Notes: generated by a model not told the origin, from the sequence alone. A DNA stretch of 64,000 nt from Candidatus Thorarchaeota archaeon (GCA_048882045.1 JBHLRZ010000007.1:32001-96000); one strand, 5' to 3'. Positions 11,127 through 38,352 are shown, counted from the stretch's first letter. Program-made: numbers and translations.

Positions 11127-12029
11127 ATGCAACTACAAGCTGAATTTCTTATTGGGAGTCTAATTGGACTACTAGCAGCATTTCTCTGGGCGATGGCAAC
11201 CAATGTCTACAAGTCTCAGAGCGATGAGGCAACCCCTTTAGCTATATCTACATTAAAGACATGGTTGTCCTTGGTCGTTATGGCAGCTTTAGTAATGCTA
11301 CCATTTCGAACAGTTCCCTTCTATGTGTCAATTGATGCTACAATTTTTCTCGCCGCGTCAGTGACGATAGGACTGGTCATAGGAGACCTTGCATTCCTGA
11401 CAGCTCAGGAACGAATCGGAGTTTCGTATGCCTATCCCATTGCTACTACATTTCCTATTTTCACCTACATTATTGCAATATTCCTTGTTGACGAGGTGCT
11501 TCTGCTGACACGTTTCTTTGGCATATTCCTTGCTGTTGGAGGGGTGATGTTGATTACCAGAGCACAAGCCTCCTCACAGAATGAGGAAGGATCTGGTAAT
11601 TTTGATAAGATTGGATTCCTGCTAGCACTCTTCACAGCACTGTGCTGGGCTGTAGGTAGTGTCTTGCTTCAGATCGGGGTCGCTGATGTAGATCCAATAG
11701 ATGCAAACTTTGTGCGTATGGTTTTTGGGGCGGGAGTCATTGCACCTCTGTTTGCAGGGGCAGTGAAACGAGGTATGCCCAAACCTACGCGGAGAGCCAC
11801 AAAGATAGTGCTTGTTGCGGCTTTCTTCGGAATGGCTTGGGGGTCTCTTCTTTACACATATGCTGTGAAGGTGATTGGTGCAGCTGTTGCATCAGTTTTG
11901 GGATCGATCTCTCCTCTGTTTGCTCTCCCAATCTCAATTTTCTTCTTGAAAGAGAAATTCTCACATATGTCAATTCTCGGAGCCCTGATGACTGTATCAG
12001 GTGTCATCATGGTCGTCTTGATCGTCTAA
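11127..12029 (+). CDS. DMT/EamA family transporter
   Basis: Ten TM segments, two EamA repeats (IGVSYAYPI; IGAAVASVLGSISPLFA...LKEK). Confidence 0.88.
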   Translation: MQLQAEFLIGSLIGLLAAFLWAMATNVYKSQSDEATPLAISTLKTWLSLVVMAALVMLPFRTVPFYVSIDATIFLAASVTIGLVIGDLAFLTAQERIGVSYAYPIATTFPIFTYIIAIFLVDEVLLLTRFFGIFLAVGGVMLITRAQASSQNEEGSGNFDKIGFLLALFTALCWAVGSVLLQIGVADVDPIDANFVRMVFGAGVIAPLFAGAVKRGMPKPTRRATKIVLVAAFFGMAWGSLLYTYAVKVIGAAVASVLGSISPLFALPISIFFLKEKFSHMSILGALMTVSGVIMVVLIV

Positions 12030-13099
12030 ATCCACTCTCTCCCTTTGAAATACATCACAAGGAATCCTGTCACCAGAAGTGTAGCAACGAGAAAAACCGG
12101 ATACCCAAAAACGCCCAATACCTCAATCTCTGGAATCCATTGAAAATTCATTCCATAGATACTAGCCATCAGAGTGAGAGGAATGACAATAGTTGACACA
12201 ACTGTCAGGACCTTCATGACCTCGTTCATCTTGTTGTTTACGCTTGAGAGATAGATATCGAGCATCCCTGTTATTGATTCACGATAGGTTTCAACATGGT
12301 CAGTCACACGAATAACATGGTCGTACAGGTCCCTGAGGAAGACCTGAGTTTCCTCAACAACATAGCTAGTGGCATCTCTCTGCATCTTCAGTACAACCTC
12401 TCGTAAAGGCCAGATATGTCTTCTAAACGAAAGGAGGTCTCTTTTGATTCTGTAAATACGATTCAACATCTCAGGAGTAGCGCGTTCGATAAGTTCATCC
12501 TCCAGATCCTCAATCATGTCACCTAATTTTTCTAGAACTACAAAGTACTCGTCAACCAATAAATCAAGGATAGTATATGTCAGATAGTCTGAGCCACTAA
12601 ATCGAATTCGGCTACCTCCACTCCTCGCTCTCATACGAATTTGATCAAAGAGGTCATCAGCAGATTCTTGGAAAGAGAGTACAAAGTTCTTCCCGAATAC
12701 TAAAGAAACCTGTTCTGAATGGAGTCGGAGTTCCTTCTCTTGGAAGTTATATGCTCTAAGTACAATGTAGATACTTTTTGGCATCACTTCAAACTTTGGC
12801 CGCTGTCCCACACTGGGAATATCCTCCATAATTAGTGGATGAAGATTGTAGTAGTTCGATATAGTCTTCACGATTTCTACATCATGAACACCCCGAACGT
12901 GTATCCATTTGGTCACCGATGGATCCTTGGAGGGGCTACAATCATCAAGCGAATCTGCGAAGTACTCCCTCATCTGCCCCTCTGAAAATTCCATCACACT
13001 GATGATGACCTCTTCCACTCGTTCAATTCCAGTATGAATGACTGTTCCTGGTGGAAGTCCAACTTTCTCAGACATATCATCCTGACTCATTTGGACCAC
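12026..13099 (-). CDS. corA: Magnesium/cobalt transporter CorA
   Basis: GLPPG N-terminus, QRPK, MNEVMKVLT, YGMNF, PE. Confidence 0.95.
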   Translation of the reverse strand: MVQMSQDDMSEKVGLPPGTVIHTGIERVEEVIISVMEFSEGQMREYFADSLDDCSPSKDPSVTKWIHVRGVHDVEIVKTISNYYNLHPLIMEDIPSVGQRPKFEVMPKSIYIVLRAYNFQEKELRLHSEQVSLVFGKNFVLSFQESADDLFDQIRMRARSGGSRIRFSGSDYLTYTILDLLVDEYFVVLEKLGDMIEDLEDELIERATPEMLNRIYRIKRDLLSFRRHIWPLREVVLKMQRDATSYVVEETQVFLRDLYDHVIRVTDHVETYRESITGMLDIYLSSVNNKMNEVMKVLTVVSTIVIPLTLMASIYGMNFQWIPEIEVLGVFGYPVFLVATLLVTGFLVMYFKGREWI

Positions 13100-13128
13100 A
13101 CTGGAGAACAGATGAAACGAATATTAGA

Positions 13129-14157
13129 AAGTGAGGATTACCTAAGCGTTACTGAATATAACCTGCTCTATACAATGGTAAAGCATTATGGAATTTTGTT
13201 TTAGGTAAATTAGTCGAAAAAAAAATCGGTATTGGGTTACTTCTTGTTTACGTAATCCAAAAAAGCTTTAACGACCATGTGAAATTTGGGATCTGCGACA
13301 ACAGTAATGTGGTCTTTTCCTTCGATTTGGAATTGACAAGAATCTGGTATTAATTGAGCTCCTGTGGATTTACCTCTTTTAATAACATCGTCATCAGCTC
13401 CGAAAACAGCCATAACTGGCACATTGACTTTAGTAAGAGCTTTTTTCCTTTCAGGATTAGATGGGAGTATACCATCCGGACGTTGAATGTCCCCTTCCAA
13501 AACATACACCAAAGCTTCGAGATCTTGTGAGTCAGATTCAGGATATTCTGAAATTGCTTTTCGGAGTCTCATAGCTGCTTTATCGTTAACATCATCAAGA
13601 TTTGCTTTCTTTAGTCCTTTTATCCATCTTTTCATCATATTTTTTGCAAGGAATTTTGTAGTTCTGCTAGGATAGTAGAGTGGAAATCCTCCAAGAACAG
13701 CACTAAGAAAGCGTTCTTGCTTTTGAAGCAAAATATCTGTAGCTATCCGTGCTCCCATAGAATATCCAAAGAAATTAGCCTTCTTAATAGATAAATGATC
13801 AAGCAATTTAACGATATCATCGTTCATCATTTCTCCATACTGGGCCGAATCTTTCGGTTTATCGCTTTTCCCGTGCCCACGACAATCTACAAGTATTAGT
13901 TTATAATCATCCTTTAGAACATCTACCCAATTAGTAGCTTTCCAATTAGCTTCGATATTTGCGGCAAACCCATGAATCATTATAACAGGTGGCCCATCCC
14001 CTACAATCTCATAGTATATTTTGACTCCTTCATTATCAAAAAATGGCATTGTTATTATTCCTCATTAAATTCTTAGTTTATACATTCATCGTGTTACTTG
14101 TCGAACGCTCTTAAAACAACATTTGTATTCTGTTTGGCTTATCTAAGTGAGGATTAC
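13129..14157. repeat. 13-bp direct repeat flanking the AT-rich hydrolase gene
   Basis: AAGTGAGGATTAC at 13129-13141 and 14145-14157. Confidence 0.7.
13237..14049 (-). CDS. Alpha/beta hydrolase
   Basis: HGF, DCRGHGKSD, GYSMG nucleophile elbow, GKDH. Confidence 0.9.
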   Translation of the reverse strand: MPFFDNEGVKIYYEIVGDGPPVIMIHGFAANIEANWKATNWVDVLKDDYKLILVDCRGHGKSDKPKDSAQYGEMMNDDIVKLLDHLSIKKANFFGYSMGARIATDILLQKQERFLSAVLGGFPLYYPSRTTKFLAKNMMKRWIKGLKKANLDDVNDKAAMRLRKAISEYPESDSQDLEALVYVLEGDIQRPDGILPSNPERKKALTKVNVPVMAVFGADDDVIKRGKSTGAQLIPDSCQFQIEGKDHITVVADPKFHMVVKAFLDYVNKK

Positions 14158-23457: not shown

Positions 23458-24171
23458 ATGCAGTTTGAGAGCATTGTGATACGAGTTTTCGATGTAGACT
23501 TCATGTTCCTTGACTTAGCATTCACAATATTCTGGATTGCACTCCTTTATAGACGAGGTTACATCAAGCCCTTGCTGTTTGGTGTCTTGGGCATCATCTT
23601 GAACTTCATCATAGACTATGGAATCTGGTACAGTGTCATGGGAATTCGAACACTTGAGGGACTTCCAATCTGGATGTCACCTCTCTCCTTCTTCGTGTAC
23701 TTCTCAATAACATATGGTATGGTCCAGTACTCATATGTGCAAGTGATGTTCTCATTCCAAAGTACAGACGAGAATAGTGAGAGGTGGAGGAGATATAGAT
23801 GGTCAGCCCTCCTCTTCGGCGGATGGTTGGTCATTGGCTTCATCTCATTCTTCTGGTCTTTCATGGATTCAGAAGTGACCGTCATCAGATACATGAACGA
23901 ACAGCGATTCATCGAGGTCGCGGTCGTCATTGCAATGTACGCGCTCTTGGCATATCTTGCATCGAGGAAGAAGTTCGACCTCAATCTCAGACGAATTGCA
24001 TACATATTCTCGGTTGGATTCTTCGTTCACTTCTCAATGGAATTCACATTGCTACTAAGTGGTATTCGAAAGTCGGGAGTATTCGACCTTGTCTTCAACA
24101 GTTTCTTAGAGTTCAATATGGGCACACCTCTCCTCTATCTGATGCTTGTTGGACTTGTCCCAATCATCTAA
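23458..24171 (+). CDS. Polytopic membrane protein (hypothetical)
   Basis: About seven hydrophobic segments. Confidence 0.7.
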   Translation: MQFESIVIRVFDVDFMFLDLAFTIFWIALLYRRGYIKPLLFGVLGIILNFIIDYGIWYSVMGIRTLEGLPIWMSPLSFFVYFSITYGMVQYSYVQVMFSFQSTDENSERWRRYRWSALLFGGWLVIGFISFFWSFMDSEVTVIRYMNEQRFIEVAVVIAMYALLAYLASRKKFDLNLRRIAYIFSVGFFVHFSMEFTLLLSGIRKSGVFDLVFNSFLEFNMGTPLLYLMLVGLVPII

Positions 24172-24195
24172 AGAAAGTTCAAGAGAAATGGGTAA

Positions 24196-24627
24196 CTACA
24201 GGGATTTCCGAAAGAAAACCTCTCCTATTCCTCCCTCATTGATTCCAGATATAATCCCACATTCTTCAAACCCAATTGAGCGGTGCCAAGCCTGAGGTTC
24301 AGGTTCGTTTGCTTGGGAAGAGCTATACAACTGATCATGTCCCCGGCTCTTCAAGTATTTCTCTAAGAAAGAGATTATCTTCTGACCGATTCCTTCATGT
24401 CTATAGAGTTCGATGACAAAGATGACTCCGATATACGGTATATTAGACCAGAGATACTCTAGTCTCAGATACCCAATTGGTTCACCATCGAGTTCTGCTA
24501 TGATGATCTCATCCTGGACTATCTTGTTGCGGATCACCTGTTCCGTCACATAGTCATCTTCTACTACACACCATTCAAGGTCTTCAGGTCCAGCAAACCT
24601 CACAACGACCCTATCATACACACTCAT
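24196..24627 (-). CDS. GNAT N-acetyltransferase
   Basis: YRHEGIG motif A, WHRSIGF. Confidence 0.88.
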   Translation of the reverse strand: MSVYDRVVVRFAGPEDLEWCVVEDDYVTEQVIRNKIVQDEIIIAELDGEPIGYLRLEYLWSNIPYIGVIFVIELYRHEGIGQKIISFLEKYLKSRGHDQLYSSSQANEPEPQAWHRSIGFEECGIISGINEGGIGEVFFRKSL

Positions 24628-24787
24628 CCTAACTCACTGTTCCAAATCTAGGATGTCAATGCATCTGAAGTAGGTTTCGAATTCATTGTTCAGAAAATGA
24701 TATATCGAGAATGGAAGTTAGAAATTGTAATTTCAGTGGTCTAGGAGTGTGAGATAAGAGACCATTCTAGGTGTAGGTGGCTGAATC

Positions 24788-26749
24788 TTGCGAAGAAAGA
24801 TCCTAATTGTCATCATTTTCCTCCTGTCTACTCTAATCCCCTCTCCAATGTTTGACTCAAAATTAGGAAAGGTTGCAGAGGGAGTATCAGGAACCATAGA
24901 GTATCATACCATTGCATATACTCGACATGATCCCATCTACATTGCATCAGACGCAGAATTCATTGCACAGGCTGCTTTAGAAGGGTGGCCTGGGGACGGT
25001 TCAGAGTCCAATCCCTACAGAATTGAAGGCTACAACATTACTCACACGGGATTCATCATCCAAATTGAAAATGTCACTATGTTTTTTGAAATTAGGAACT
25101 GCTACCTGGCTTCAAATTCGTCAGGGGTGCACATCGAAAGCTCCTCAGACTGTGAAGTATATTCCAACGATTTCGATAATGCAAGTATTGAGATATGTGA
25201 CAGCGGTAATTGTGAAATCTATTCAAATGAATTCTATAATGGATCTGAGATACGAATTAACTGTTGTTTTCAAGTTTCGGTATCAGACGTTAGAGTCATT
25301 GCACCATCTGACCAGGGGATACTTGTTAGCAACTCAAGTCACTGCAATATCTCTAATTCCATATTATATTCATCACCAATAGCCGGGATTGTTGCAATGG
25401 ATTCGCTCTCCTGCTCCTTTACTTCCAACACCATATCACATTGTCAGAATGGCATACTAATTTGCAACGATACCTCCTCATCTCTATTTACTAACAACTA
25501 CATATTCAATCAATCAGAGTATGGAATAAAAGTTGAAAGTGGTTCTGATAACTGGATATATGCGAACATCGTAGCTAGTGAAGGAACAGGATTTTTCCTG
25601 GACGATGGTGTTCAGAATCACTGGGATGATGGATTTTTCCTAGGAAACTTTTTGCCTGGAATAACTGAAGGAATCTTTCCCATAGACGGTTCTGCTGGGA
25701 GCGAGGATCAATTTGCAAGGCCAGTAGACCCAGAGCCAGTTGAAGAGCCAGTAATCTGTTCAGATCCGATACTGGTGAAACTCGGTGATTTTGATGGAAT
25801 TCTAGCTTGTGTGGTTTGGCTGAGAGAAGAAACTCGTCTGTATAGGTTTGAGATTATCAGAAACAGATTCTACATAAATGGAGCGTTTGATCGAGATATT
25901 GAATGGTCAGGTCCATGTACTATTGTGATTGATGTAGAGGGTTTGGCTCCAGGTATTTACGAATTCAGCCTATTCCAAGATCTCTGGGTTCCCCCCTTCG
26001 ATGAGGGGGAAATACATCTGTTTGATTTTACAACCTACCTTCCCGGATTTTATTCTCCTATTGATAATGATGCTGATGACATGTTTGATGAATGGGAGAT
26101 TGAGCATGGTCTGGATCCTTTGAGCAATGATAGTGAAGATGATCCCGATAGTGATGATCTCTCCAATCTTCATGAATTTATGTGGAACACTGATCCACAA
26201 AATCCCGATACGGACTCAGACCTCATGCCAGACGGATGGGAAGCTCACTACGACCTGCGACCATGGGTCGATGACTCGGGATTGGATAAAGACTCAGATG
26301 GTTTGTGCAACCTCGATGAGTATCTTCATGGAACGGACCCAGAGGATAGCGACTCAGATTCCGATTCGATAACGGACGGATGGGAGGTGACCTTTGGTCA
26401 AAATCCATTGGATCCCTCTGATGCATTGATAGATTCCGATGCTGATACTCTAACAAATCTCCAAGAGTTTCTACTTGGAACCAATCCAACTAGTCCAGAT
26501 TCTGACTTCGATTCTTATCCTGATGCTTGGGAGGTGCGCTATGGATTCGATCCACTTACCCCTCCTGATACAATGTATGAAGAGATCGCATATTTTGCAC
26601 CTTTCATTATCACTGGATATCTGACTCTTAGTGCCATATCTGTGGTGACAATAGTCATGAATCGAATGGGAAAGATGCTCCTAAAAGAGCAGAGCCAACT
26701 TGATGAAGAGGAAGAGATCAAGCGTCAACTTCAAGCTCTGATGTCTTGA
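24788..26749 (+). CDS. Surface protein: signal peptide, NosD-like parallel beta-helix, TSP3-like Ca-binding repeats, C-terminal TM
   Basis: [16 protein letters not shown], Asn-rich PbH1-like repeats, repeated D-x-D-x-D-x-x-x-[DN]-x-x-E-x-x-x-G-[TL]-[DN]-P. Confidence 0.8.
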
Positions 26750-29361
26750 TCTCTATATTCCTCAGGATTCTTGTCGAAGGTTTCTTTACAGTAAGGATTG
26801 CAGAAGTAGTACCTCTTTCCTTCATAGTCAGAGTAGAGATCAGCGGATGCAATGTCGACTTTCATGTTACAGATTGGGTCGATTGCTACATCTCCCTCAA
26901 GGTAGGCTGCAGGAGGAACTCCTTCTTCCTTTAATTCCACAACCTTAGGCTTAAACCTATTCAGTGTAAGAGCGTTTGCTACAACACTGACACTTGATAG
27001 TGCCATTGCTAGTCCTGCAAATTGCGGCTGAAGATAGAGACCGAGAGTAGGGAAGAGAAGTCCTGCGGCTACTGGAAGGAGAATGATGTTATAGATAAGT
27101 GCCCAGAAGAATCCCTGTTTGATCTTTGTCATTGTCTTCTGACCAAGTTGAATTCCTGTGACAACATCCATGAGGTCATCCTTTACTAGGACAATGTCCC
27201 CTGATTCCACAGAAACATCGGTGCCTGAGCCTAGCGCAATGCCAACATCAGCTTGAGCTAGAGCTATCGCATCATTGACACCATCGCCTGTCATTGCGAC
27301 AATCTTTCCCTGAGCTTGAAGTTTCTTGATTTGTTCTGCCTTCTGATCAGGAAGGACCTCGGCCAATGCATGTTCAATACCAACAGATTCTCCAATCGCT
27401 TTGGCGGTTATCTCCCTGTCACCTGTAATCATCCAGACATCGATACCCATACCTTTGAGTGTACTCACAGCCTCTACCGAGCTTGGTTTCAGATCGTCAG
27501 CAATTGCCAAGACTGCAAGCTGCTTTCCATTGACAGACGCATAGATTACTGTCTTCCCTAGTTGCTGGAATATTTCTGATTGGTCATCAATGTTGGAAAA
27601 GTCCACTCCGAGATCTTTCATGAACTGTTGACTGCCAACAGAAACAGTTTCTCCCTCAACAACTGCACTCACTCCTTTCCCAGTAGTGTATTGGAAATCT
27701 TCTGATTGTGGAAAAGCAATTCCCCTTTCATTGACATAGTAAACAACTGCTTCTGCCAAAGGATGTTCGCTGTTCTTTTCCACCGATGCAATGAGTCGAA
27801 GAGATTCCTCTTCTTTATAGCTCCCCACAGTGATGACATCGGTCACAGTCGGTCTTCCTATGGTGAGAGTTCCAGTCTTATCGAAAACAATTGTATCGAT
27901 TTCTGGGATTATTTCAAGACCATCTCCTGTCTTGATTAGGATTCCATGCTGAGCTCCCTTTCCTATACCAACCATAATTGCAGTAGGAGTGGCGAGTCCC
28001 AGTGCACACGGACAAGCTGCGACCAGAACTGCAATTGTAAAGTTGAGTGCAAGGTCCCATTGAACGTTCATGACGAAGACCCAGAACAGGTATGTGGCAA
28101 TCGAGATGACCAGAACAATGGGCGTAAACACCTCTGCGATTGAGTCTGCCTTTCGCTGGATGGCTGGCTTGTTCGTCTGAGCCTCTTCCACCATTCTGAC
28201 AATCTGTGAGAGGACAGTGTCCTGACCTACCTTGGTAGCCTTGACTCTAAGAACTCCATTCTTATTGACTGTGCCACCTACAACAGAATCGCCCACTGTC
28301 TTATCAACAGCAACCGACTCTCCAGTGATCATCGACTCATCAACCGAGGACTTCCCTTCTAGAACACTTCCATCAACAGGTACTCGATCACCCGGACGAA
28401 CTAGGACAAGATCATCAACTTCGACATCTTCAATGGGTAGAATCAGTTCTTCTCCATTGCGAATCACAGTTGCAACTTTAGCCTGAAGATCCATCAATCC
28501 TCTAATGGCCTTTGATGTGCGTCCTTTTGCAACCGATTCTAATGTGCGACCCAGTAGTATGAATGAGATCAGCAAGACAGCAGCATCATAGAAGGGGGCA
28601 TAGCCAGAAAGGACGAATGTTGTTGCAACCGAGTAACCATAGGCTGCAGTTGTACCCAGCATTACAAGAGTGTCCATATTTGTCTTGAAATGTCGTAATC
28701 CTCTGAGTGCTGCTTTGTAGAACGGGTATCCTCCAATGAACTGAACAGGAGTTGAGAGGAAGAACATCAGTAGCATTTTCGTACTTTCTAGAGGAATCAG
28801 CGCATTAAGTACTCCAAAGTGGATTAGAACTACAGGAATCGTTAGTATCACTGAGAATGTTAAGAGTGTAGCATAATATCGGATTTCTTTTTCTCTTGCG
28901 AGGGATTCTCTATCTCTCTCCACACCCTCACTAGACTCTAATTTGAAACCCAGACTCAGAATTGTCTTCCGAACAATCTTGAAGGTGACCAAATCCTCGT
29001 CGTATTCGATTAGTAGACGTTTTGAATCAGGATAGCTCCTCGCTGTTATTACTCCTTTTATCTGACTAACTGCAGTGGTAATCTCATCCCATTGAGACTC
29101 ACTAGGACTTTCAGAAAGCGTTAAAGTCATCGATGCTCTTCGAGCGCGATAACCAACGGAATCCACAGCCATTTCCAACACAGACCGATCTACTGAATCT
29201 GCGTAATATTCGACAACAGCTTTCTCATCGAGAAGACTTACACTAGCTTTAATCACACCATCTTGAGAAAGCAGTGACTTCTCAATTGTGGCAACACAGG
29301 AAGCACAATGCATTCCTTCAATTTTCATCGAAAGTCTTTCGGGAGTTTCATTTTTGGTCAT
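26731..29361 (-). CDS. copA: Copper-translocating P1B-type ATPase with an N-terminal HMA and a C-terminal YHS/TRASH domain
   Basis: GMHCASC, TGES, CPC, DKTGT, SEHP, GDGVND, YN, MALSS; C-terminal DPICNM...YYFCNPYC. Confidence 0.95.
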
Positions 29362-29387
29362 CTATTTTACAATCCTTTATGCAATAT

Positions 29388-29437
29388 ATTATATCGTTGT
29401 AGATATATAGACGTAGATATATCGGTGTCGATATATA
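29388..29437. promoter_or_regulatory. Operator array upstream of copA: four GATATATC-like boxes at 14-bp period
   Basis: ATTATATC 29388, GATATATA 29402, GATATATC 29416, GATATATA 29430. Confidence 0.75.
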
Positions 29438-29480
29438 AGTTTTTTGATTGGGCGGGTTTGGAAGGAAACCATATTGTCAA

Positions 29481-29951
29481 TTATAAACTCTGTTTGAACG
29501 CTTTTGCACAATGAACACAACAAAAAGTAAGATTTGTTCCATTGACTTCTTCGTAGTGCGCGCCTTCGAAAACCCTAGCTCCACAACTTGCACAAACCTC
29601 TAGGCTGGACCCGAGGGCAGATACTGTGATCGCAGCAAAACGTTTGAATAACTGGTTGCTAAATCGCTCTCCTTTCTTCGTCATTGAATAGACAATCTTA
29701 CGTTTCTTCCCTATGTCTTCTTGCTTCTGGGTGACCAGCTTCTTTTCTTCGAGTTCCTGCAAAAATGGGTATAGTGTTCCTGGACTTAATTTCTTCCCAG
29801 TTCGTTTTTCATAACTTTTCATAAGACCATAACCATGCAATGGCTTTTCGTTCAACATCAACAAGATATAGAAATGCGAGAAATCAGCTAGTATTTCCTG
29901 AATGTCAGGATGGGGCACTTTCATGTCTTGAATTGTTTTTTCATTCGTCAT
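29481..29951 (-). CDS. PadR-family regulator with a C-terminal TRASH metal-binding domain
   Basis: PLHGYGLMK, LSPGTLYPFLQELEEKKLV; CASC...FCCVHC. Confidence 0.9.
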   Translation of the reverse strand: MTNEKTIQDMKVPHPDIQEILADFSHFYILLMLNEKPLHGYGLMKSYEKRTGKKLSPGTLYPFLQELEEKKLVTQKQEDIGKKRKIVYSMTKKGERFSNQLFKRFAAITVSALGSSLEVCASCGARVFEGAHYEEVNGTNLTFCCVHCAKAFKQSL

Positions 29952-30140
29952 TTTTGTGTCAACCCAAGGAAGCTCGAATATTTTGAGTCACACAGATAAG
30001 GAATAAAGAAGTTCCCGTGTGTGACATATAATCCAATCCACGAAGCATTTTCCTATAATAGTTGCCTATTTGATTAAACTCTTCCCGATCATGCCGAGAA
30101 ATGGACTACATTATATGAGATTTTGATGAGTAGCAATATA

Positions 30141-30322
30141 AATGTATCTTAAGGGATATATCCATAGGGATAATTAATGCCTGCTCTCAGGAATCCCACC
30201 GGGGCTCTATCAATGTTAGAAACAGATTTCGGATAAGAAAAGCCAATATAGGGTGCCCGACAGAATATTTATATATATCGAGTGGGATATATCTGATTGG
30301 ATACTATTGTTTGCGATATATC
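30141..30322. promoter_or_regulatory. GATATATC operator arrays in the divergent regulator/YHS-lon intergenic region
   Basis: AATGTATC 30141, GATATATC 30155, GATAATTA 30169; TATATATC 30272, GATATATC 30286, GATACTAT 30300, GATATATC 30315. Confidence 0.72.
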
Positions 30323-30355
30323 TGAAGAGATTTACATAAAGCAGAGGCAAAGGAA

Positions 30356-30511
30356 ATGGCTAGAGACCCAATATGTGGAATGATAGTAGATGAGAACACA
30401 ACCAAGCTAAAGACAGTTCATAAAGGAGAAACTTTCTACTTCTGTATGATGAGCTGCAAGAAAGCCTTTGACAGTGATCCAGATCGCTTTGCCATCGAAT
30501 CCACAAATTAA
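30356..30511 (+). CDS. YHS/TRASH metallochaperone, 51 aa (not in the ORF track)
   Basis: MARDPICGMIVDENTTKLKTVHKGETFYFCMMSCKKAFDSDPDRFAIESTN. Confidence 0.9.
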   Translation: MARDPICGMIVDENTTKLKTVHKGETFYFCMMSCKKAFDSDPDRFAIESTN

Positions 30512-30532
30512 TAATAGAGCAGGAGATTATCT

Positions 30533-32986
30533 ATGAAAAAACTGACACCAGAAGAAATTCGGGTTCGTTGTGATGATAGGGAGTTTGCATGCAGAACTAG
30601 TGCAGAGCTTTTTCCCCTAGATAATATCGTTGGACAGAAACGTGCTCTTGAATCATTGCGATTCGGACTAATGATAAAGGATAAGGGATTCAATGTCTTT
30701 GTTGCGGGTATTCCAGGAACTGGTCGCACCACTGCAGTTTCAAAATTCCTTCAAAATCTTGCAACAAACGAATCGAATGCATCAGATTGGTGCTATGTAA
30801 CCAATTTCGAGAATCAGTATCACCCACGGGCTCTTGAGCTTCCATCAAGTAGAGGGATGCAATTAGAGCAGCAAATGGAGAGCTTCATTGAACTTGCTCA
30901 AATGACGCTTTCTGAGATGCTGGAAAGTGAGGAATATATTATACAAAGAAATCAACTTCTGAAGGTTTTCAAAGACAAACAGCAGGAAATAAGCAATCAA
31001 ATGGAAAATGAAGCACGAAAAAACGGGTTCATATTGCAAGGTTCTAAGACGCGACTACTCTTACTTCCAATAATCAATGGTGAGCCTCTCGATCCTGAAG
31101 CAAACGTCCACCTGCCCAAGGAAATCGAAGAGAAAATCGCAGAAAATCGTGAAGTCGTGGAAAAGCAAATGCGAGTGCTTTTCCGCAAGTTACGTCTTAT
31201 TGAACGTGAACTTCGTGAAGCTCTTCAGAATAAAGAACGAGAAGCTGTGCTTTACGCCCTCTCCCCACTTATTGATGACCTTAAGGAGAACTTCAGGGAT
31301 CTGCCAAGGGTTACACAGTGGATTCAGGAAGTAGCTGAGGATATCACCGAACATCTTCAGGAATTCATCGGACTCTCAGAAGTTGATTCATCAGATGAGC
31401 TGGATTTATCGCAATCGGGATCAATCACACGGGAAGATTTCACTCATAGATATAGAGTGAATCTGTTCGTTGATAATTTGGGAGCAGATGGCGCTCCTGT
31501 TGTAATCCTTGCAAATCCTTCTTATAACAACTTATTTGGTGTAATAGAGAAAGAACCACGATATAGCGGACTTAGAACAGACTTTTCTATGATTCGCCCA
31601 GGAGCCCTGCATAAGGCAAATGGTGGTTATCTAGTTGTTCCAGCACTGGAACTTCTAACTTCTCCACATGTCTATCAATCTTTGAAGAGGGCCCTTGAAC
31701 ATAGCGAGATAGTTATCGAAGAACCTCAGGAATCAAGCAACTTCTTTACTGTGAAGAGTTTACGTCCGGAACCAATCCCATTGGATGTGCAAGTAATTCT
31801 AATTGGCGAGGAAGAGATTTACCAAGAGCTTTACAATAAGGACCCCGAATTTCGGCAACTTTTCAAGGTAAAGGCAGAATTTGACATTTCGATGGATCGC
31901 ACGCCTGAAAACATCCATGTATTTGGCTCGTTCATTTGTATGATTCACTCAAGGGAAGGGCTGAACCCTTTGAAAGCAGACGCCATTGCAGAAGTAATCG
32001 ATTATAGCTCCCGCCTAGCGGAGAATCAAAACAAGCTCTCTATAAGATTTGACATAATAACTGACATCATTCGCGAAGCAAACTTCTATGCGAGCGAAGA
32101 AAAAAGCATCACCATAGAAAGAGATCATATCGAAAAAGCCATCCGTCAAAGATTATACCGATTGAATCTTTATTCAGAGAAGGTTCGTGAGCTCATTAAG
32201 AAGAATATCATTTTTATCGATCTTGAGGGGGAAACTGTAGGACAAGTAAATGGACTTTCGGTGGTCACTCTTGCAGGTCATACTTTTGGACAAACATCTC
32301 GAGTTACAGCTAGTATATCCCCAGGGCACCAGGTTGTAATAGATATTGAACGTGAATCAAATCTTGGTGGTCCGATTCATACAAAAGGAGTACTCATACT
32401 TGCGGGATATCTTGCTAATCGATACGGAAGAGAAAAACCACTTAGTCTTTCTGCGCGGATTGTCTTTGAGCAGAGTTATGGAGGCGTTGAGGGAGATAGT
32501 GCAAGTAGCACAGAACTGTTTGCAATTTTATCTGCTCTTTCAGGAGTACCTATCCAACAGAGATTTGCTGTAACTGGCTCCGTCGATCAACATGGACGAA
32601 TTCAAGCTGTGGGAGGAATTAATGAAAAGATTGAAGGATTTTACGAACTCTGTAAAGCAAAAGGTTTGACCGGGCATCAAGGAGTCTTGATACCAAAAAC
32701 CAATATTCAGAATTTAATGTTATCAGATGAAGTAGTTGAAGCTGTTAGGATGGACTCATTCCACATTTATGCAATAGAAAATGTGGATGAAGGCATTGAA
32801 TTGTTAACTGGTGTACCAGCAGGCAGAAGTCAAGAGAATGGAAACTATTTGCCAGGATCAATTAATGCAATGGTGGATGAGTTTCTGGTTCGAATGGCCA
32901 AAATTATGGAAAAGTATTCTACTGAGAATCACAGCAAACATGAAATCTCTACTACACCACAACAAGTGACGTTCTCTGGAGGCTGA
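30533..32986 (+). CDS. Lon-family S16 protease, LonC/AAA_32 type
   Basis: GIPGTGRTT (Walker A Lys to Arg), GALHKANGGYL, FEQSYGGVEGDSAS (catalytic Ser), GGINEKIEG (catalytic Lys). Confidence 0.92.
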   Translation: MKKLTPEEIRVRCDDREFACRTSAELFPLDNIVGQKRALESLRFGLMIKDKGFNVFVAGIPGTGRTTAVSKFLQNLATNESNASDWCYVTNFENQYHPRALELPSSRGMQLEQQMESFIELAQMTLSEMLESEEYIIQRNQLLKVFKDKQQEISNQMENEARKNGFILQGSKTRLLLLPIINGEPLDPEANVHLPKEIEEKIAENREVVEKQMRVLFRKLRLIERELREALQNKEREAVLYALSPLIDDLKENFRDLPRVTQWIQEVAEDITEHLQEFIGLSEVDSSDELDLSQSGSITREDFTHRYRVNLFVDNLGADGAPVVILANPSYNNLFGVIEKEPRYSGLRTDFSMIRPGALHKANGGYLVVPALELLTSPHVYQSLKRALEHSEIVIEEPQESSNFFTVKSLRPEPIPLDVQVILIGEEEIYQELYNKDPEFRQLFKVKAEFDISMDRTPENIHVFGSFICMIHSREGLNPLKADAIAEVIDYSSRLAENQNKLSIRFDIITDIIREANFYASEEKSITIERDHIEKAIRQRLYRLNLYSEKVRELIKKNIIFIDLEGETVGQVNGLSVVTLAGHTFGQTSRVTASISPGHQVVIDIERESNLGGPIHTKGVLILAGYLANRYGREKPLSLSARIVFEQSYGGVEGDSASSTELFAILSALSGVPIQQRFAVTGSVDQHGRIQAVGGINEKIEGFYELCKAKGLTGHQGVLIPKTNIQNLMLSDEVVEAVRMDSFHIYAIENVDEGIELLTGVPAGRSQENGNYLPGSINAMVDEFLVRMAKIMEKYSTENHSKHEISTTPQQVTFSGG

Positions 32987-33885
32987 TGAGTATGACTAAG
33001 CAAAATATCCTCATCAAGAATCTGGAGGGATTGAACAAATCCATCTTCTTTAGAACAATGATAGCCCCATTAGAACCTCAGATAATAAAGCAGGAAGTAG
33101 TACAATCTGAGCACTTCATAGATTCCGACATCATCGTCGAGTTTCTAGAAAATCGTACATACTTGCCTGAGTTTGACTATATCGGTTATGAAGTAAAAAC
33201 TGTTGATCGTGTTAACGCAGTATATTTAATGATAAATCCAGATCCATTGAATCTTGATTATGTACCAAAAAACAGTCTGGTTATTTGCCATCACAAAATT
33301 TCTACTCACAATAATCGTATCTACAAAAAAATGCTTGACCACGCAAGAAATTCAAAATTCAACATTTACAACTTCCACCTGGGGTGGGATATTATGGAAG
33401 GTGGAATCTTAGATTCATTTCTGTTTGACTTTGGATTATCTCATCATGATTTCGAAAAGGTTGATCTTACATATCGAGGTTATCTAATTCCTCAATTAGG
33501 AGCTATATTCAAAAAAAGGTTAACAATGGAGGACATAATTAACAGACTTTACATGATGAATGTCCAGCTATCAGTTATCATTAATCCACAATGCAAGGCA
33601 TCCAAGGTTGGATACATACCTGGTGGTGGTTTTGTTGATGATATGGTCATAGAAATGGCGGATTTAGGTGTCGATGTTCTCATTTCATCAGACCATAATT
33701 GGGTAGTTGAAACTATTGCCAGAGAGGAAAGGATGACCCTAATTGAGATTGACCATTATCGCAGTGAACGTCATGGTTTACGAACAATGAAGAACCTCCT
33801 TGAGAACTCATTTTCAAACATTCCCATCAATATCCTAGAGAATGTTGATGGAATGGAACGAGCTCCATGCGATTGTAATTCTTGA
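32986..33885 (+). CDS. Nif3-like dinuclear metal-centre protein (divergent)
   Basis: CHH, FHLGWD, PGGG, IDHYRSE; start overlaps the lon stop. Confidence 0.75.
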   Translation: MSMTKQNILIKNLEGLNKSIFFRTMIAPLEPQIIKQEVVQSEHFIDSDIIVEFLENRTYLPEFDYIGYEVKTVDRVNAVYLMINPDPLNLDYVPKNSLVICHHKISTHNNRIYKKMLDHARNSKFNIYNFHLGWDIMEGGILDSFLFDFGLSHHDFEKVDLTYRGYLIPQLGAIFKKRLTMEDIINRLYMMNVQLSVIINPQCKASKVGYIPGGGFVDDMVIEMADLGVDVLISSDHNWVVETIAREERMTLIEIDHYRSERHGLRTMKNLLENSFSNIPINILENVDGMERAPCDCNS

Positions 33886-34003
33886 GGAATAAACATCCAA
33901 GAAGAACTGTCGTTGGTTAGAATTTAGTGTTAAATAGCGAAGTCTTGTTGCATGTTGGCTCAAACATACCTCTTCTATGATCGTTTCTTCAATTTACTCA
34001 TTT

Positions 34004-34903
34004 CTAATCCATCTTTGATTGAACTCTCTTCGCCCGAACGATCTTTACATTAACAATAATGTGGCTAGGGTTGATACGTTCCTGATTCTTGGTTTTAATG
34101 TAATAGAGTAAAATCAACAAGATATATCCAACATATGCAATGACCTCAATGGCTGAAGGATTCCCATTGTAACCGAATAGAGCTTTTGCGAGTCCACCAA
34201 TAAGACCTTTCTCATGCAAAAGTGGATAACTGCCATCTGGTAATAATGGAGGATTGATGTTCCAAAGTTCACTTGGACCTAAGGCTAAGAAACCTACTTC
34301 TTGAAGCTCATGAATACCATAGGCAATCATTCCAGCGGCAAATAATACCAAAAGGAAAGAAGTTGAATTGAAGAATGATTTTAGACTGATTCGTAATGAG
34401 CCTTGATAGATTCCAAATCCGACGAAGGCTGCGAATATTAACCCCAAGGCTACTGCAATAAAAGTCGTATAGCCTTCTTGGATTGCTAATGCAGCTGAGA
34501 ACAGGACTAATTCAACGCCCTCCCGCAAAACAAGAGCAAAAGCAAGAATGGGTAGACCGAGTTTCCCTCCCACAGTCCTCTCCTCAACGGATTGTCTGAT
34601 TTCTGTGGTTAGGTTTGTACTCGCCTTTCTCATCCAGAATATCATAGAAGTCAGGAGAAATGCAGCAAATAAAACAAGTGACCCCTCAAAGACCTCCAGC
34701 ATTGGTCCTTCAAATGACCCCCAAATCACCCCCAGCACAGAAGCTAATCCGATACTTGTGATTATTGCAAGTAATGTGCCGCTGATGATGCTACGATTCA
34801 TATTCTCTCTGCCAGTCTTGCGAAGATAAGAGAACATTATTGCAATGACAAGAGCAGCTTCAATACCTTCACGCAGTGCAACAATGAATGGTGCAATGAA
34901 CAT
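34004..34903 (-). CDS. FTR1/EfeU family iron permease
   Basis: Two RExxE motifs (LREGIE, LREGVE), GIHELQE, LFGY. Confidence 0.92.
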   Translation of the reverse strand: MFIAPFIVALREGIEAALVIAIMFSYLRKTGRENMNRSIISGTLLAIITSIGLASVLGVIWGSFEGPMLEVFEGSLVLFAAFLLTSMIFWMRKASTNLTTEIRQSVEERTVGGKLGLPILAFALVLREGVELVLFSAALAIQEGYTTFIAVALGLIFAAFVGFGIYQGSLRISLKSFFNSTSFLLVLFAAGMIAYGIHELQEVGFLALGPSELWNINPPLLPDGSYPLLHEKGLIGGLAKALFGYNGNPSAIEVIAYVGYILLILLYYIKTKNQERINPSHIIVNVKIVRAKRVQSKMD

Positions 34904-35062
34904 TATAGAATCCCCCTATCATGGAATATTCCTACTCGTCTAGCAGAAATTGACTTCGGAGAATGCCACATAACATAATGTCTATGCTTCTCTAGTCTAT
35001 AGATAAACGATATAGAAGACCCATTGATTTCCTTTTTTGGATCCACAACTCTGCTCATGAGT

Positions 35063-35455
35063 TCAACCTCCTCCTGTACCAACCAAAAATACGATTGTGT
35101 CACCTTCATCGAGTCTTCTATTCATTTTTTCTTTTGAATCGAGTCCCATTCTTAGTTTCCAACCCGTTACGATTATTTTCCCATTAACTATGATTATTGT
35201 TTCATTACTGAGGGTTTTGCTTTTCTTCTCGTCTAGATACGCATCCAATGAATAAACAAACTCACTCATCAAGTGATCAATGAGATCAGTGAGCGAAGTT
35301 CCTTCTTGAATATGAAGTGGAAATTTGTTATAGTTTGATTCTCTTAGGCCCCTATTCAACAGCTTAATGAAGACTTGAATCACTGAGTTTTTCCCCTTCG
35401 ATAGTTTTTGTCTAGAATACAACTTTGGCTTGTTGTAAATTTTCGAGAGTGTCAT
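35063..35455 (-). CDS. MoaD/ThiS/SAMP ubiquitin-like beta-grasp protein
   Basis: IIIVNG...LDEGDTIVFLVGTGGG with terminal GG; basic N-terminal extension. Confidence 0.8.
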   Translation of the reverse strand: MTLSKIYNKPKLYSRQKLSKGKNSVIQVFIKLLNRGLRESNYNKFPLHIQEGTSLTDLIDHLMSEFVYSLDAYLDEKKSKTLSNETIIIVNGKIIVTGWKLRMGLDSKEKMNRRLDEGDTIVFLVGTGGG

Positions 35456-35486
35456 ATTGTAGAATTCCTTCTTTGATATGCATCTC

Positions 35487-35672
35487 TTAGCCGCAGCAAC
35501 CTCGTCGGGGTATTGCTACTATTCTACGCTGTGAATAGAAATCGGGGGAATCATCAAAACTTGTTTTGCATGACTGCTTGCAGAAATAGTATCTTTTTCC
35601 CATGTAGTCAGAATAATACTTAGTTACGTTTTCGTTAACCTCTAATCCACAAACTGGATCTTTTACCATCAT
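35487..35672 (-). CDS. YHS/TRASH protein with a C-terminal GCCG tail
   Basis: KDPVCGLEV...YMGKRYYFCKQSCK...RRGCCG. Confidence 0.9.
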   Translation of the reverse strand: MMVKDPVCGLEVNENVTKYYSDYMGKRYYFCKQSCKTSFDDSPDFYSQRRIVAIPRRGCCG

Positions 35673-35793
35673 TATATCACCTTCAGTTCCAGTTCTACTC
35701 TTGTGCTTTCAATATTCAAGATCTTGGTTAACGAGCATTGCCATCAAATAGGCCAATTGTTCACCCAATCTCTTGATTCTATATTACCACAAG

Positions 35794-35871
35794 GATATAT
35801 CGGAACTGTATTATTATGGCACGCTTCAGCTTATAAATATATCGTGTTAGATATATCTTGCATGATATATA
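35794..35871. promoter_or_regulatory. GATATATC operator array upstream of the YHS-SAMP-FTR1 genes
   Basis: GATATATC 35794, AATATATC 35836, GATATATC 35850, GATATATA 35864; all in 14-bp phase. Confidence 0.75.
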
Positions 35872-35964
35872 ATTGCGTTAGTAATTCAAAAGAAAAAAGA
35901 GAGAGAAGTGGGAATCTTCTCCCGCCCATTTAAAAATTGCACAATAATCCTTAGGCTAAGGTCC

Positions 35965-36117
35965 TTACTCTTCAATTCCCACTTCTAGATTGTATTTCTC
36001 AGGATTGGCATCAAACATCTTCTTATGCTCTGAGTTCATAAAGTAGTAGGTCTTGCCCTTATAGACAGATTTGATGTTTGGTTTACCCATCATACCGCAA
36101 ACGGGACATTTTGACAT
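35965..36117 (-). CDS. YHS/TRASH variant, 50 aa (not in the ORF track)
   Basis: MSKCPVCGMMGKPNIKSVYKGKTYYFMNSEHKKMFDANPEKYNLEVGIEE; GGTGA RBS upstream. Confidence 0.88.
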   Translation of the reverse strand: MSKCPVCGMMGKPNIKSVYKGKTYYFMNSEHKKMFDANPEKYNLEVGIEE

Positions 36118-36193
36118 TTTTTCTTCACCATGTGTCCAGATCATCTATTCCCATTCAGGATATAGAGTACCCACCAATTGGAGGGCACTCCCA

Positions 36194-36285
36194 TTTATAT
36201 CCATAGAGATATATCGTAGACGACTATGTCAATGCCACAAGCAAATATAAATCTATCGTACTAGATATATCCAAGCGGATTTATT
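36194..36285. promoter_or_regulatory. GATATATC operator array upstream of the variant YHS gene
   Basis: TTTATATC 36194, GATATATC 36208, GACTATGT 36222, AATCTATC 36250, GATATATC 36264, GATTTATT 36278; all in 14-bp phase. Confidence 0.75.
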
Positions 36286-36378
36286 CAAGTTGATTATAAA
36301 TTAGTAGTTCATCTATTCTTTTGGTATGAGTTGTATTGAAGACATTCGAGTTCATTGGAACTCAAAATCGTCTCATTA

Positions 36379-36966
36379 CTAGCCAACGAAGTATTCGCTT
36401 TCCTTCTCATTCGCAGCTTCACTCATCATTCTTAGAAGCTCATGAAAGGTGTCCTGAATATTAGCCCCAGTCCTTGCAGAGGTTTCTCGGAATATTGCTG
36501 GGACTCCGAGTTTGTTGATGAAGTACTGTGTGAATGCCTGACCTTCTTCTGGAGTTACATACTTTTTCTTGTCGAGACTCGTTCTCAGATCTATCTTGTT
36601 ACCGATAATTACAGTTGGTGGAAGTGGCCCCATGTTCCTAAAAGCTTCAACCAGCCATTTAGAGGCATTATCAAATGACTCACGATCGATTACAGAATAC
36701 ACAAGTAGGATTCCGTTGCAGCCAGCATAATAATGACCTCGCACTTTCTCGAAAGTCGGCTGACCTGCCAGGTCCCAAATGATGAACTTGACAACATCCT
36801 GCTCGAACAACACACGCTTGGTAGCGAGGTCGACACCGATTGTGGCAAGGTGTCCCTCGATGAAGTCCTCTCCAAGATAATTGCGTCTGATACTTGTCTT
36901 TCCGACAGCTCCGTCTCCAATAAGGACTGCTTTCATGATTTTGCTGCCGTCGTCTTGGTCTCGCAT
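36379..36966 (-). CDS. Rab-like small GTPase
   Basis: GDGAVGKTS, TIGVDL, WDLAGQ, NKID, ETSAR. Confidence 0.93.
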   Translation of the reverse strand: MRDQDDGSKIMKAVLIGDGAVGKTSIRRNYLGEDFIEGHLATIGVDLATKRVLFEQDVVKFIIWDLAGQPTFEKVRGHYYAGCNGILLVYSVIDRESFDNASKWLVEAFRNMGPLPPTVIIGNKIDLRTSLDKKKYVTPEEGQAFTQYFINKLGVPAIFRETSARTGANIQDTFHELLRMMSEAANEKESEYFVG

Positions 36967-37125
36967 GTCGTGGATCTCCTCAGTACCTTGTTGGCGTGAT
37001 GTAGTTCACAAGCCCTCCCGAATAATGTGACTACAGAAAATGCAAAGCTTGGTGCAAGATAAGGTTAATGTTCTAGAACCAAAAAGAGCTTGTGATAGGA
37101 ATCCCCATCAAACATCATGTGATGG

Positions 37126-38352
37126 TCACTCAAATAGAGAACGTATTATCTTAGTCATCTTTCGAGGACTAACAGATCCAATCTTAATTCTTTCACAAGA
37201 ATGAAACGTAGCAAAATCAGAAACACCTTGCCTGAGTCGCTCTAAACCATCGCGAGACTGCAATGATTCTTCTTCCAAGTAGAGTGATTTAATCTCAAGT
37301 ACTCCCTCTTTTCTATGAACCTTAGCATCTAATCTGCCAGCCAACTGGATCCCATCTAGAATGGGAAGCACAAAGTATCCATAGATGCGTTTTGAAGCAG
37401 GAACATAACACTCGATTGTGTATTCAAAGTTCCAAATTTGTTGAGGAAAGTGCCTCTCACGAAGAATGTTGTCAAACGGTGTAAGAATCTTGATAGGCGC
37501 TTCATCAGAAACAACATTCTGATTGAGTAGAGCATCAACAGAACTCTGGAGTATGTAGTATTTACCCTTCACACCCTCAATGGAAACGGTCTCGAGAGCA
37601 CCATCAGAAACCTTTTCATCCAAGAACGCTTCAACCTCGGTCTTCTTGCCGTTCCAGAGTTTTTGCGCAGGAAGGCGTCCGAGGTATGTACGAATGTCCT
37701 GATAGTTTCCCAGACCCAACGAACCAAGGGTTGTCTCAACTATGAATCTTGCAGCCTCATCATTCGAAAGTGGTTCTGTATCAATCCCGGGAGGGATTAC
37801 TCGTTCTGCGAGGTCGTACTGCTTCTGGAAGTTCTCCCTGTAGGCAACCATCAGTCTTCCAGTTGTATACAGATATTCCAATGCTCGTTTCTCAACCTTC
37901 CAGTCCCACCAACCATCTGACTTTGTCTTTCGCTCTCCAACAGAGGCACTGTTTGTAATCCCCTCCTTCTTAACTTTCTTGTAGACTTGCTCGATGAGAC
38001 CCTTGTTCTCTTTGCCCCACTTTCGGAACGACGCCCAGAGTTCCTCGGGGTAGAAAGATCGCCTCCACGCATAGAAGGGGTAGGTCGCTATAGGCATCAG
38101 ACAGGCAGAATGGGACCAATACTCGAAGAGCTTGCCCTCCTTCTGCAGTTCCCAGATGTCACCCTCTCGATAATTGGGATAGCGATTGAATGAGATGAGG
38201 TTGTGACTTCTTGACACTACTGATATCGTATCGATCTGGATGCTGTGGATCCGATTGGCTACATCCAACGTGGACTTGCTTGGCTTGTCGGTTCTGAGAC
38301 CCTGTGCATCAAGAACCAGTCTCCTTACGTCCTCGATGGATGCTTCAATCAT
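37126..38352 (-). CDS. ycaQ: YcaQ/AlkZ-family DNA crosslink-repair glycosylase
   Basis: IQIDTISVVSRSH (QxD motif), LFEYWSH, WWDWK, PFDN, ECYVPASKRIYGYFVLPIL. Confidence 0.88.
   Translation of the reverse strand: MIEASIEDVRRLVLDAQGLRTDKPSKSTLDVANRIHSIQIDTISVVSRSHNLISFNRYPNYREGDIWELQKEGKLFEYWSHSACLMPIATYPFYAWRRSFYPEELWASFRKWGKENKGLIEQVYKKVKKEGITNSASVGERKTKSDGWWDWKVEKRALEYLYTTGRLMVAYRENFQKQYDLAERVIPPGIDTEPLSNDEAARFIVETTLGSLGLGNYQDIRTYLGRLPAQKLWNGKKTEVEAFLDEKVSDGALETVSIEGVKGKYYILQSSVDALLNQNVVSDEAPIKILTPFDNILRERHFPQQIWNFEYTIECYVPASKRIYGYFVLPILDGIQLAGRLDAKVHRKEGVLEIKSLYLEEESLQSRDGLERLRQGVSDFATFHSCERIKIGSVSPRKMTKIIRSLFE

Follow-up and report, generated by a model that had tools for sequence, protein, structure and literature searches.

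The DNA window analyzed here, 64,000 nucleotides in length, originates from Candidatus Thorarchaeota archaeon (GCA_048882045.1, JBHLRZ010000007.1:32001-96000), a member of the Asgard archaea represented by a 3.6-Mb metagenome-assembled genome (coded G000). It contains a gene island encoding a copper exporter (CopA), a PadR-type regulator with a TRASH-like tail (PadR-TRASH), three stand-alone YHS/TRASH proteins (YHS1-YHS3), a LonC-type protease, a NIF3/DUF34-like protein, a MoaD/ThiS-like protein and an FTR1-family permease. We consider it likely that this is a metal-resistance island controlled by the PadR-TRASH protein, with Cu(I)/Ag(I) as the most likely signal and with a core and an accessory set of predicted regulon members. 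Gene calls were checked with Pfam and NCBIfam profiles. Pfam matches bore out the gene list of a first-pass annotation of the window for every gene named, apart from the MoaD/ThiS-like one, which is treated separately below.

The regulator, composed of 156 amino acids (aa), possesses a PadR domain (PF03551; 58.1 bits, cut-off 27, E 9e-16) and a TRASH-like tail, which matched the Pfam family Ta0938 (27.5 bits, cut-off 27) and, below the cut-off, TRASH_HVO_1752_C. The cysteines of this tail (C120-x2-C123-x20-C144-x3-C148, including the segment C144-C145-x-H147-C148) are invariant in an alignment of 11 orthologues and conform to the pattern tested for TRASH/YHS domains, C-x2-C-x19-22-C-x3-C. Solved PadR structures matching the protein (3elk, 5dym and 5zhc) cover the PadR part only and leave the TRASH tail uncovered. 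No Lrp/AsnC match was found with Pfam or NCBIfam, and a RAM/oligomerization domain was likewise absent.

The product of the neighboring copA gene displays the Cu(I) P1B-1 signature (CPC 450, YN 757, MALSS 786 of the MxxSS type, DKTGT 494 and CASC 19), scores 615.9 bits with TIGR01511 (NCBIfam cut-off 397), and contains HMA, E1-E2, HAD and YHS domains recognized by Pfam. The stand-alone YHS proteins exceed the PF04945 cut-off of 30.3 (47.7, 54.8 and 33.4 bits). Four YHS domains were found in the whole genome, and all of them lie within the island.

Putative operator motif and its link to the regulator

A palindromic box, GATATATC, is present in 11 copies in the window, compared with 1.16 expected, a number reached in none of 100 shuffled sequences. 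Eight of the 11 boxes fall in intergenic regions of the island. The boxes are regularly phased: 14 box pairs spaced 14 bp apart were counted genome-wide, against 0-4 pairs for the other spacings between 10 and 19 bp. Nine of these 14 phased pairs are located in the island and two on contig C75. Five arrays of boxes precede copA, padR, YHS1-lonC-nif3, YHS2-moaD-like-FTR1 and YHS3, respectively (Table 1). The first-pass annotation had proposed a single operator motif shared by all of four promoter regions. The shared array before each unit was indeed found, but the arrays number five, because padR owns the one at positions 30141-30176. This padR-side array likely serves autoregulation of the gene.

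The GATATATC boxes overlap TATA-like sequence of the promoters. When the copA promoters of six genomes were compared, TTATATATCG-N4-CGATATATC proved to be their sole invariant part, the flanks being divergent. The binding unit is probably an inverted repeat, TATATC-N6-GATATA, which would fit a dimeric winged-helix protein.

Table 1. Features of the PadR-TRASH island (positions counted from the first nucleotide of the window).
Feature	Coordinates	Strand	Evidence
CopA, P1B-1 Cu(I)/Ag(I) exporter, N-terminal HMA (CxxC), C-terminal YHS	26731..29361	-	Pfam, NCBIfam, motifs
Operator array, copA promoter, four boxes in 14-bp phase	29388..29437	.	Motif search
PadR-TRASH regulator, PadR winged helix at residues 29-97	29481..29951	-	Pfam, alignment
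Operator array, padR side of divergent region	30141..30176	.	Motif search; position kept in relatives
Operator array, YHS1-lonC-nif3 promoter, overlaps TATA-like TTTATATATATC	30272..30322	.	Motif search
YHS1, 51-aa stand-alone YHS/TRASH protein, 21 bp 5′ of lonC	30356..30511	+	Pfam, orthologue alignment
LonC-type Lon-like protease	30533..32986	+	Pfam, motifs, alignment
NIF3/DUF34-like protein without rhodanese; start overlaps lonC stop	32986..33885	+	Pfam, ligand residues, homologues
FTR1/EfeU-family permease, REGIE and REGVE	34004..34903	-	Pfam, motifs
MoaD/ThiS-like protein ending GTGGG	35063..35455	-	No Pfam match; weak MoaD-like signals
YHS2, 61-aa YHS protein, C-terminal GCCG tail, leads YHS2-moaD-like-FTR1 unit	35487..35672	-	Pfam
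Operator arrays 5′ of YHS2, 110-200 bp ahead of ATG	35780..35871	.	Motif search
Terminator-like hairpin and T-run 3′ of YHS3, parting YHS3 from the YHS2 unit	35901..35923	-	
YHS3, 59-aa divergent YHS protein (CPVCGMM ... YYFMNSEH), part of conserved core island	35965..36144	-	Pfam
Operator arrays, YHS3 promoter	36194..36285	.	Motif search

A scan of 185,579 species genomes yielded 324 relatives of the regulator, and the locus counts given here refer to the best 80 of these 324. The 80 loci come from Thorarchaeota, Hermodarchaeota, Bathyarchaeia, Brockarchaeota and Borrarchaeum. In nearly all of them the regulator adjoins CopA, with or without YHS genes, and this arrangement (padR-copA, plus or minus YHS) represents the core module; most genomes of the same genus carry only Ras-[YHS3]-padR-copA-YHS. 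An exact box is located within 400 bp 5′ of the padR-TRASH gene in 57 of the 80 loci, the background being 0.05 per 400 bp, and the extended consensus TATATC-N6-GATATATC persists down to regulators of 43-50% identity. This co-occurrence of box and regulator across loci is the main argument for regarding the box as the operator of the PadR-TRASH protein, and in silico the case for a regulon with a shared operator is strong.

Being A/T-rich and overlapping TATA-like sequence, the boxes could also be strong basal promoter elements (variants of TATA or of the B recognition element, BRE) or the site of another factor. This explanation appears highly improbable: the phased pairs are nearly confined to one island in a 3.6-Mb genome, the boxes lie 5′ of the regulator gene in most of the loci counted above, which belong to distant phyla, and an invariant 20-bp palindrome is typical of a dimeric winged-helix protein.

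Two further boxes of the window, at 34121 (inside FTR1) and 53090 (inside an open reading frame of 1143 aa), are single and intragenic; they were rejected as operators and probably reflect chance or carry-over. Beyond the island, the sole other phased GATATATC array of the genome was found on contig C75 (L001, 3161-3222), 5′ of a gene for a 78-aa membrane protein followed by one for a PEMT/ICMT-like methyltransferase. In G029, a Thorarchaeota genome, a second cop locus (L084) has an array, near 14609, before genes for a DUF6114 membrane protein and a PEMT-like protein, and a membrane protein plus PEMT-like pair may be a recurrent member of the regulon. A MacB-like ABC permease is encoded directly behind an operator array of the same locus (11176-13182), together with an ABC ATPase whose C-terminal domain is YHS.

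The accessory block and its products

Between padR and YHS3, two operons, YHS1-lonC-nif3 and YHS2-moaD-like-FTR1, make up an insertion of 5.8 kb. This accessory block was identified in ten Thorarchaeota loci, this one counted (six genomes of three genera, the metagenomic loci L155-L157 and one further genome locus, L058), each time inside the island and behind operator arrays. The whole block is present in G000, G002, G216 and G239. In G029, copA was not detected beside this padR, and in G230 the block is cut by the contig end, leaving only lonC, YHS, padR and copA visible. Each block-bearing island contains 9-13 exact boxes, nearly all in gaps between mapped genes (11-12 intergenic boxes in L155-L157). 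The block is intact across genera at 66-70% protein identity, and the gene order in L155-L157 is identical to that of the island described here.

The association of lonC, nif3, the gene of the GG-ended protein and FTR1 with the regulator and its motif, proposed in the first-pass annotation, thus recurs in nine other Thorarchaeota loci. Since the block was seen in Thorarchaeota loci only (in one Asgard family, where genomes carry family codes), it does not characterize PadR-TRASH loci in general, and the view of the accessory genes as a general part of such loci was overstated.

In five loci (L139, L065, L155, L156 and L157) nif3 is split from lonC and has its own arrays, and therefore this gene is not merely riding in the operon. 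A small MarR-like gene was noticed between lonC and nif3 in islands at ~66-72% identity (L065, 6502-6756; L155, 7365-7622; L157, 7313-7654); in L155 and L157 it is opposite in strand to nif3, and the intervening region holds operator arrays.

In G216 (L138), a genome assigned to another genus, the regulator and the accessory proteins of the island have 85-91% identity, and the island is placed among different neighbors, i.e. genes for MsrA, APH, B12-binding, MFS and flavodoxin proteins. The island appears to move as a unit, and its position in G216 suggests transfer or relocation as a whole; no integrase was seen within 5 kb of it.

The island LonC contains LonC_helical (PF20437, 48.6 bits), AAA_32 (PF13654), LID (PF20436) and Lon_C (PF05362) domains. 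Its Walker A motif is degenerate (GTGRT, with Lys replaced by Arg), and the Ser656/Lys699 dyad is intact. The LonC_helical, AAA-like, LID and S16 domains, the degenerate Walker A and the Ser-Lys dyad are common to this protein and LonC of Meiothermus taiwanensis, for which two publications describe a lack of ATPase activity and a dual chaperone-protease function (PMC3391209, PMC13069640). Their abstracts are devoted to biochemistry and mention neither a physiological context nor a regulon, whereas the genes of the island LonC and its relatives are found behind a metal-sensor operator or beside P-type ATPase genes.

LonC of the island type (67-91% identity) was found only inside cop islands, in six of six genomes representing three genera. 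Its relatives have other surroundings. In G102, which belongs to another Asgard family, a second LonC gene follows copA directly and lies between two padR-TRASH genes (L085). In this same family (f12), the main LonC (52-58% identity) adjoins a P2-type cation ATPase encoded on the same strand in all seven loci examined (L043, L044 and L141-L145), a link between LonC and a P-type pump that, judged from gene context, is conserved and unrelated to copper. The f12 arrangement points to an alternative in which LonC works for the P-type pump itself (for example in its assembly, quality control or turnover, or in those of its chaperones) and is no general remover of mis-metallated proteins, with FTR1 moving a metal other than iron. 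The G102 gene order also favors a tie to the pump. We regard this alternative as unlikely, as the contexts of LonC copies of 45-49% identity, which were checked, revealed no boxes, metal genes or ATPase neighbor, and lonC of the island is transcribed away from copA, together with YHS1 and nif3. A complex prediction for YHS1 and LonC scored 0.03, which counts neither for nor against an interaction of the two.

The part of this alternative that concerns FTR1 rests on the nature of the permease. FTR1 relatives include the lead-uptake protein PbrT, which speaks for transport of a non-iron metal, but the island protein keeps both iron-type REXXE motifs (REGIE at 11 and REGVE at 127). It matched PF03239 with 163.8 bits; with NCBIfam it scored 213.6, short of the 255 required for the EfeU equivalog. 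The family and the two motifs are shared with known FTR1/EfeU permeases (yeast Ftr1-Fet3, EfeUOB and FtrABCD); the island FTR1 differs from them in being a second paralogue placed under a copper-type operator. The housekeeping copy of this genome resides on contig C68, in a context with no boxes or metal genes. No ferroxidase of the Fet3 kind and no P19 or EfeO/EfeB partner was noted among the Pfam-annotated genes of the island and its flanks, in which no search was aimed at these families. An FTR1 gene is located directly 3′ of padR-TRASH in three Bathyarchaeia/Brockarchaeota loci (L095, L130 and L137) and in L129, whose record is labelled Firmicutes; the complete FTR1 genes among these (L095, L129 and L137) encode both REXXE motifs.

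The NIF3 protein (PF01784; 67.6 bits, cut-off 23.4) retains the ligands of the dinuclear site (HH102-103 and DHYRSE 256-261), as in the NIF3/DUF34 proteins YbgI and HcgD, and falls below the TIGR00486 equivalog cut-off (57 against 130 bits). NIF3/DUF34 proteins have been proposed to act as metal insertases or chaperones (PMC8469502). The island protein belongs to an Asgard-centered rhodanese-NIF3 clade, most members of which are rhodanese fusions, whereas the island form, which was not found outside islands, is devoid of the rhodanese domain. Most of the non-island homologues (50-61% identity; L054 4869-6068 of G012, P0020-P0068) carry this domain at the N-terminus. No boxes or metal genes were found in the rhodanese-NIF3 contexts checked, and in two Thorarchaeota loci the gene is placed beside a Fer4-MtrA-like gene.

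The MoaD-like gene may start at the GTG at 35383, giving a protein of 106 aa, as in the called orthologues. An AlphaFold2 (AF2) model of the protein is weak (mean pLDDT 59) and has a bb-a-bb-b topology of the beta-grasp type. With this weak model, Foldseek ranked MoaD first (6jbz_B, E 6.7e-4), ahead of SUMO, ubiquitin and SAMP1. The profile TIGR01687 was matched below the cut-off (E 0.002), the Atlas score to the MoaD/ThiS cluster was 0.89, and the orthologues gave faint ThiS matches. All five orthologues end in GGG. The sole ThiF-family gene of the genome is located on contig C8, outside the island. The protein had initially been described as a SAMP; a MoaD/ThiS-like fold is indicated and the GGG terminus is present, but the SAMP label is not justified. 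Together with the rhodanese-NIF3 clade, the MoaD-like protein hints at sulfur transfer.

Several features at the edges and in the gaps of the island were also inspected. A NosD-like beta-helix gene (24788-26749, plus strand) was rejected as a regulon member, its single box at 24699 being absent 5′ of the G002 and G004 orthologues; this gene and copA (minus strand) converge with a 19-bp overlap (26731-26749). On the opposite side, a gene for a Ras/Arf-family small GTPase (36379-36966) is found next to the cop island in almost every genome of the genus and is tripled in L155, with no evident functional link. The reading frame orf68 (34903-35109, 68 aa), which fills the 160-bp gap between the MoaD-like and FTR1 genes, overlaps the former, is poorly conserved, is frameshifted in G002 and was undetected in orthologous islands at 66-70% identity, yet a 73-aa gene was called at the same place in L156; orf68 is probably not a real gene. 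The YHS2 leader (35673-35780) is long and conserved, with the same layout in L155-L157. It has no Rfam match, and none was obtained in the region 24000-37500. A sigma-70 promoter scan produced 22 matches against 24 expected, the bacterial model being uninformative for an archaeal host.

Predicted regulon and its relation to known copper sensors

According to the mechanism that we propose, a PadR-TRASH dimer would bind the inverted repeat TATATC-N6-GATATA, copies of which overlap in Thorarchaeota as GATATATC boxes every 14 bp. Since these sites overlap the TATA-like elements of promoters, the metal-free protein would block TBP/TFB; characterized PadR proteins are mostly repressors. Once its Cys/His TRASH tail bound metal, presumably copper, the regulator would leave the DNA and all units would be switched on together. 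The core predicted regulon, common to several archaeal phyla, would comprise padR, copA and the YHS mini-proteins, and the accessory one, proper to this lineage, YHS1-lonC-nif3 and YHS2-moaD-like-FTR1, each under operator control. The accessory genes may help the cell to cope with the aftermath of copper poisoning: LonC would degrade damaged proteins without ATP or hold them, metal and sulfur would be re-inserted by NIF3 and the MoaD-like protein, and FTR1 would take up extra iron-type cations. Co-control by one regulator, suggested in the first-pass annotation, agrees with the shared, regulator-linked operator before every unit and with the FTR1 and LonC links in other lineages; it is the generality of the accessory genes that did not hold.

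Several points weigh against this prediction. In place of Cu, the ligand of the TRASH tail might be Zn, Cd or an Fe-S cluster. Repression as the mode of action is weakened by the analogy with CopR of Pyrococcus furiosus, which both represses and activates. The 14-bp spacing of the boxes differs from one helical turn, which bears on the stoichiometry of the arrays. The block is absent from most same-genus genomes that keep padR-copA, and one genome (L024/L060) has retained YHS2 and a moaD-like fragment, fused beside padR, in what looks like a deletion remnant; this absence and the remnant indicate that the block is dispensable. Moreover, a YHS gene leads each accessory operon, so the shared promoter could partly result from duplication of an array-plus-YHS cassette and not from selection on the downstream genes.

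These last observations bear on another explanation, in which only the core cop regulon is real and LonC, NIF3, the MoaD-like protein and FTR1 are passengers without a role in metal stress, brought under control by duplicated operator-plus-YHS cassettes inserted before unrelated genes. Both accessory operons do begin with an array-bearing YHS gene, the block is missing from most relatives and deleted in G026, and other LonC, FTR1 and NIF3 paralogues of these genomes occur in unrelated, box-free contexts. However, arrays of its own, with no YHS gene, accompany nif3 in the five loci named above, the block has remained intact across genera despite the divergence of its proteins, other lineages show an independent joining of FTR1 and LonC to padR-TRASH/copA, and the island copies are specialized paralogues confined to the island. 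Passenger status of the accessory genes is therefore quite unlikely, and we retain the prediction of a core and an accessory regulon. A more far-reaching version of it, a dedicated copper-damage repair regulon, in which the sensor turns on the pump, LonC, a rhodanese-less NIF3 insertase, a MoaD-like sulfur carrier and FTR1 upon copper stress to clear and rebuild Fe-S or other metal centers, is possible but rather doubtful.

The island resembles the archaeal CopR/CopT systems (P. furiosus CopR, PF0739; Saccharolobus copR/T-copM-copA) in that the regulator combines a TRASH-type Cys domain with a DNA-binding domain, its gene lies beside copA and several promoters are targeted. CopR and CopT possess an Lrp/AsnC helix-turn-helix and an oligomerization domain, whereas the island regulator is a PadR protein, hence CopR-like in its predicted working but not a member of that family. 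The sites differ as well: CopR binds TTNNCAWWWTGNNAA upstream of BRE (PMC7830388), while the island operator, TATATC-N6-GATATA, overlaps the TATA box. LonC, NIF3 and MoaD-like members, present in the island, are unreported for CopR regulons.

Copper shock in P. furiosus induces CopA/CopZ along with genes of iron transporters, ferritin and Fe-S assembly; a 28-kb region contains the 14 genes that copper induces most strongly (PMC7830388). Coupling of copper and iron under a TRASH regulator is thus not new in concept, as it has been published for P. furiosus CopR, and in this respect the view of the island as an undescribed type of regulon has to be narrowed. What is new here is the PadR DNA-binding domain, the operator, and the LonC, NIF3 and MoaD-like members. 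With known PadR regulators (Bacillus subtilis and Lactococcus lactis PadR, LmrR, Mycobacterium tuberculosis Rv3488 and Halobacterium RosR) the island protein shares the winged-helix fold and a palindromic operator, putative in the island, whose half-sites lie roughly one helical turn from each other. Phenolic acids, drugs or oxidative stress are the signals of these known members, and the island regulator adds a TRASH tail. No publication joining the terms 'TRASH domain' and 'PadR' was found in the literature searched, the reach of which excludes most subscription journals.

The archaeal copper sensors characterized so far are Lrp/AsnC-TRASH proteins. PadR-TRASH, which has a sharply defined candidate operator and extends over Asgard archaea, Bathyarchaeia and Brockarchaeota, would add a second class to them. 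No consensus exists on the physiological role of the conserved proteins LonC and NIF3/DUF34, and their specialized copies behind a metal-sensor operator provide a stress context for both. The repeated joining of FTR1 and PadR-TRASH in two phyla fits the view of copper toxicity as mainly an iron and Fe-S problem. If the repair-regulon reading were true, LonC and an archaeal NIF3 clade would for the first time have a physiological role and a regulatory context, and PadR-TRASH proteins would constitute a second, widespread class of archaeal copper sensors.

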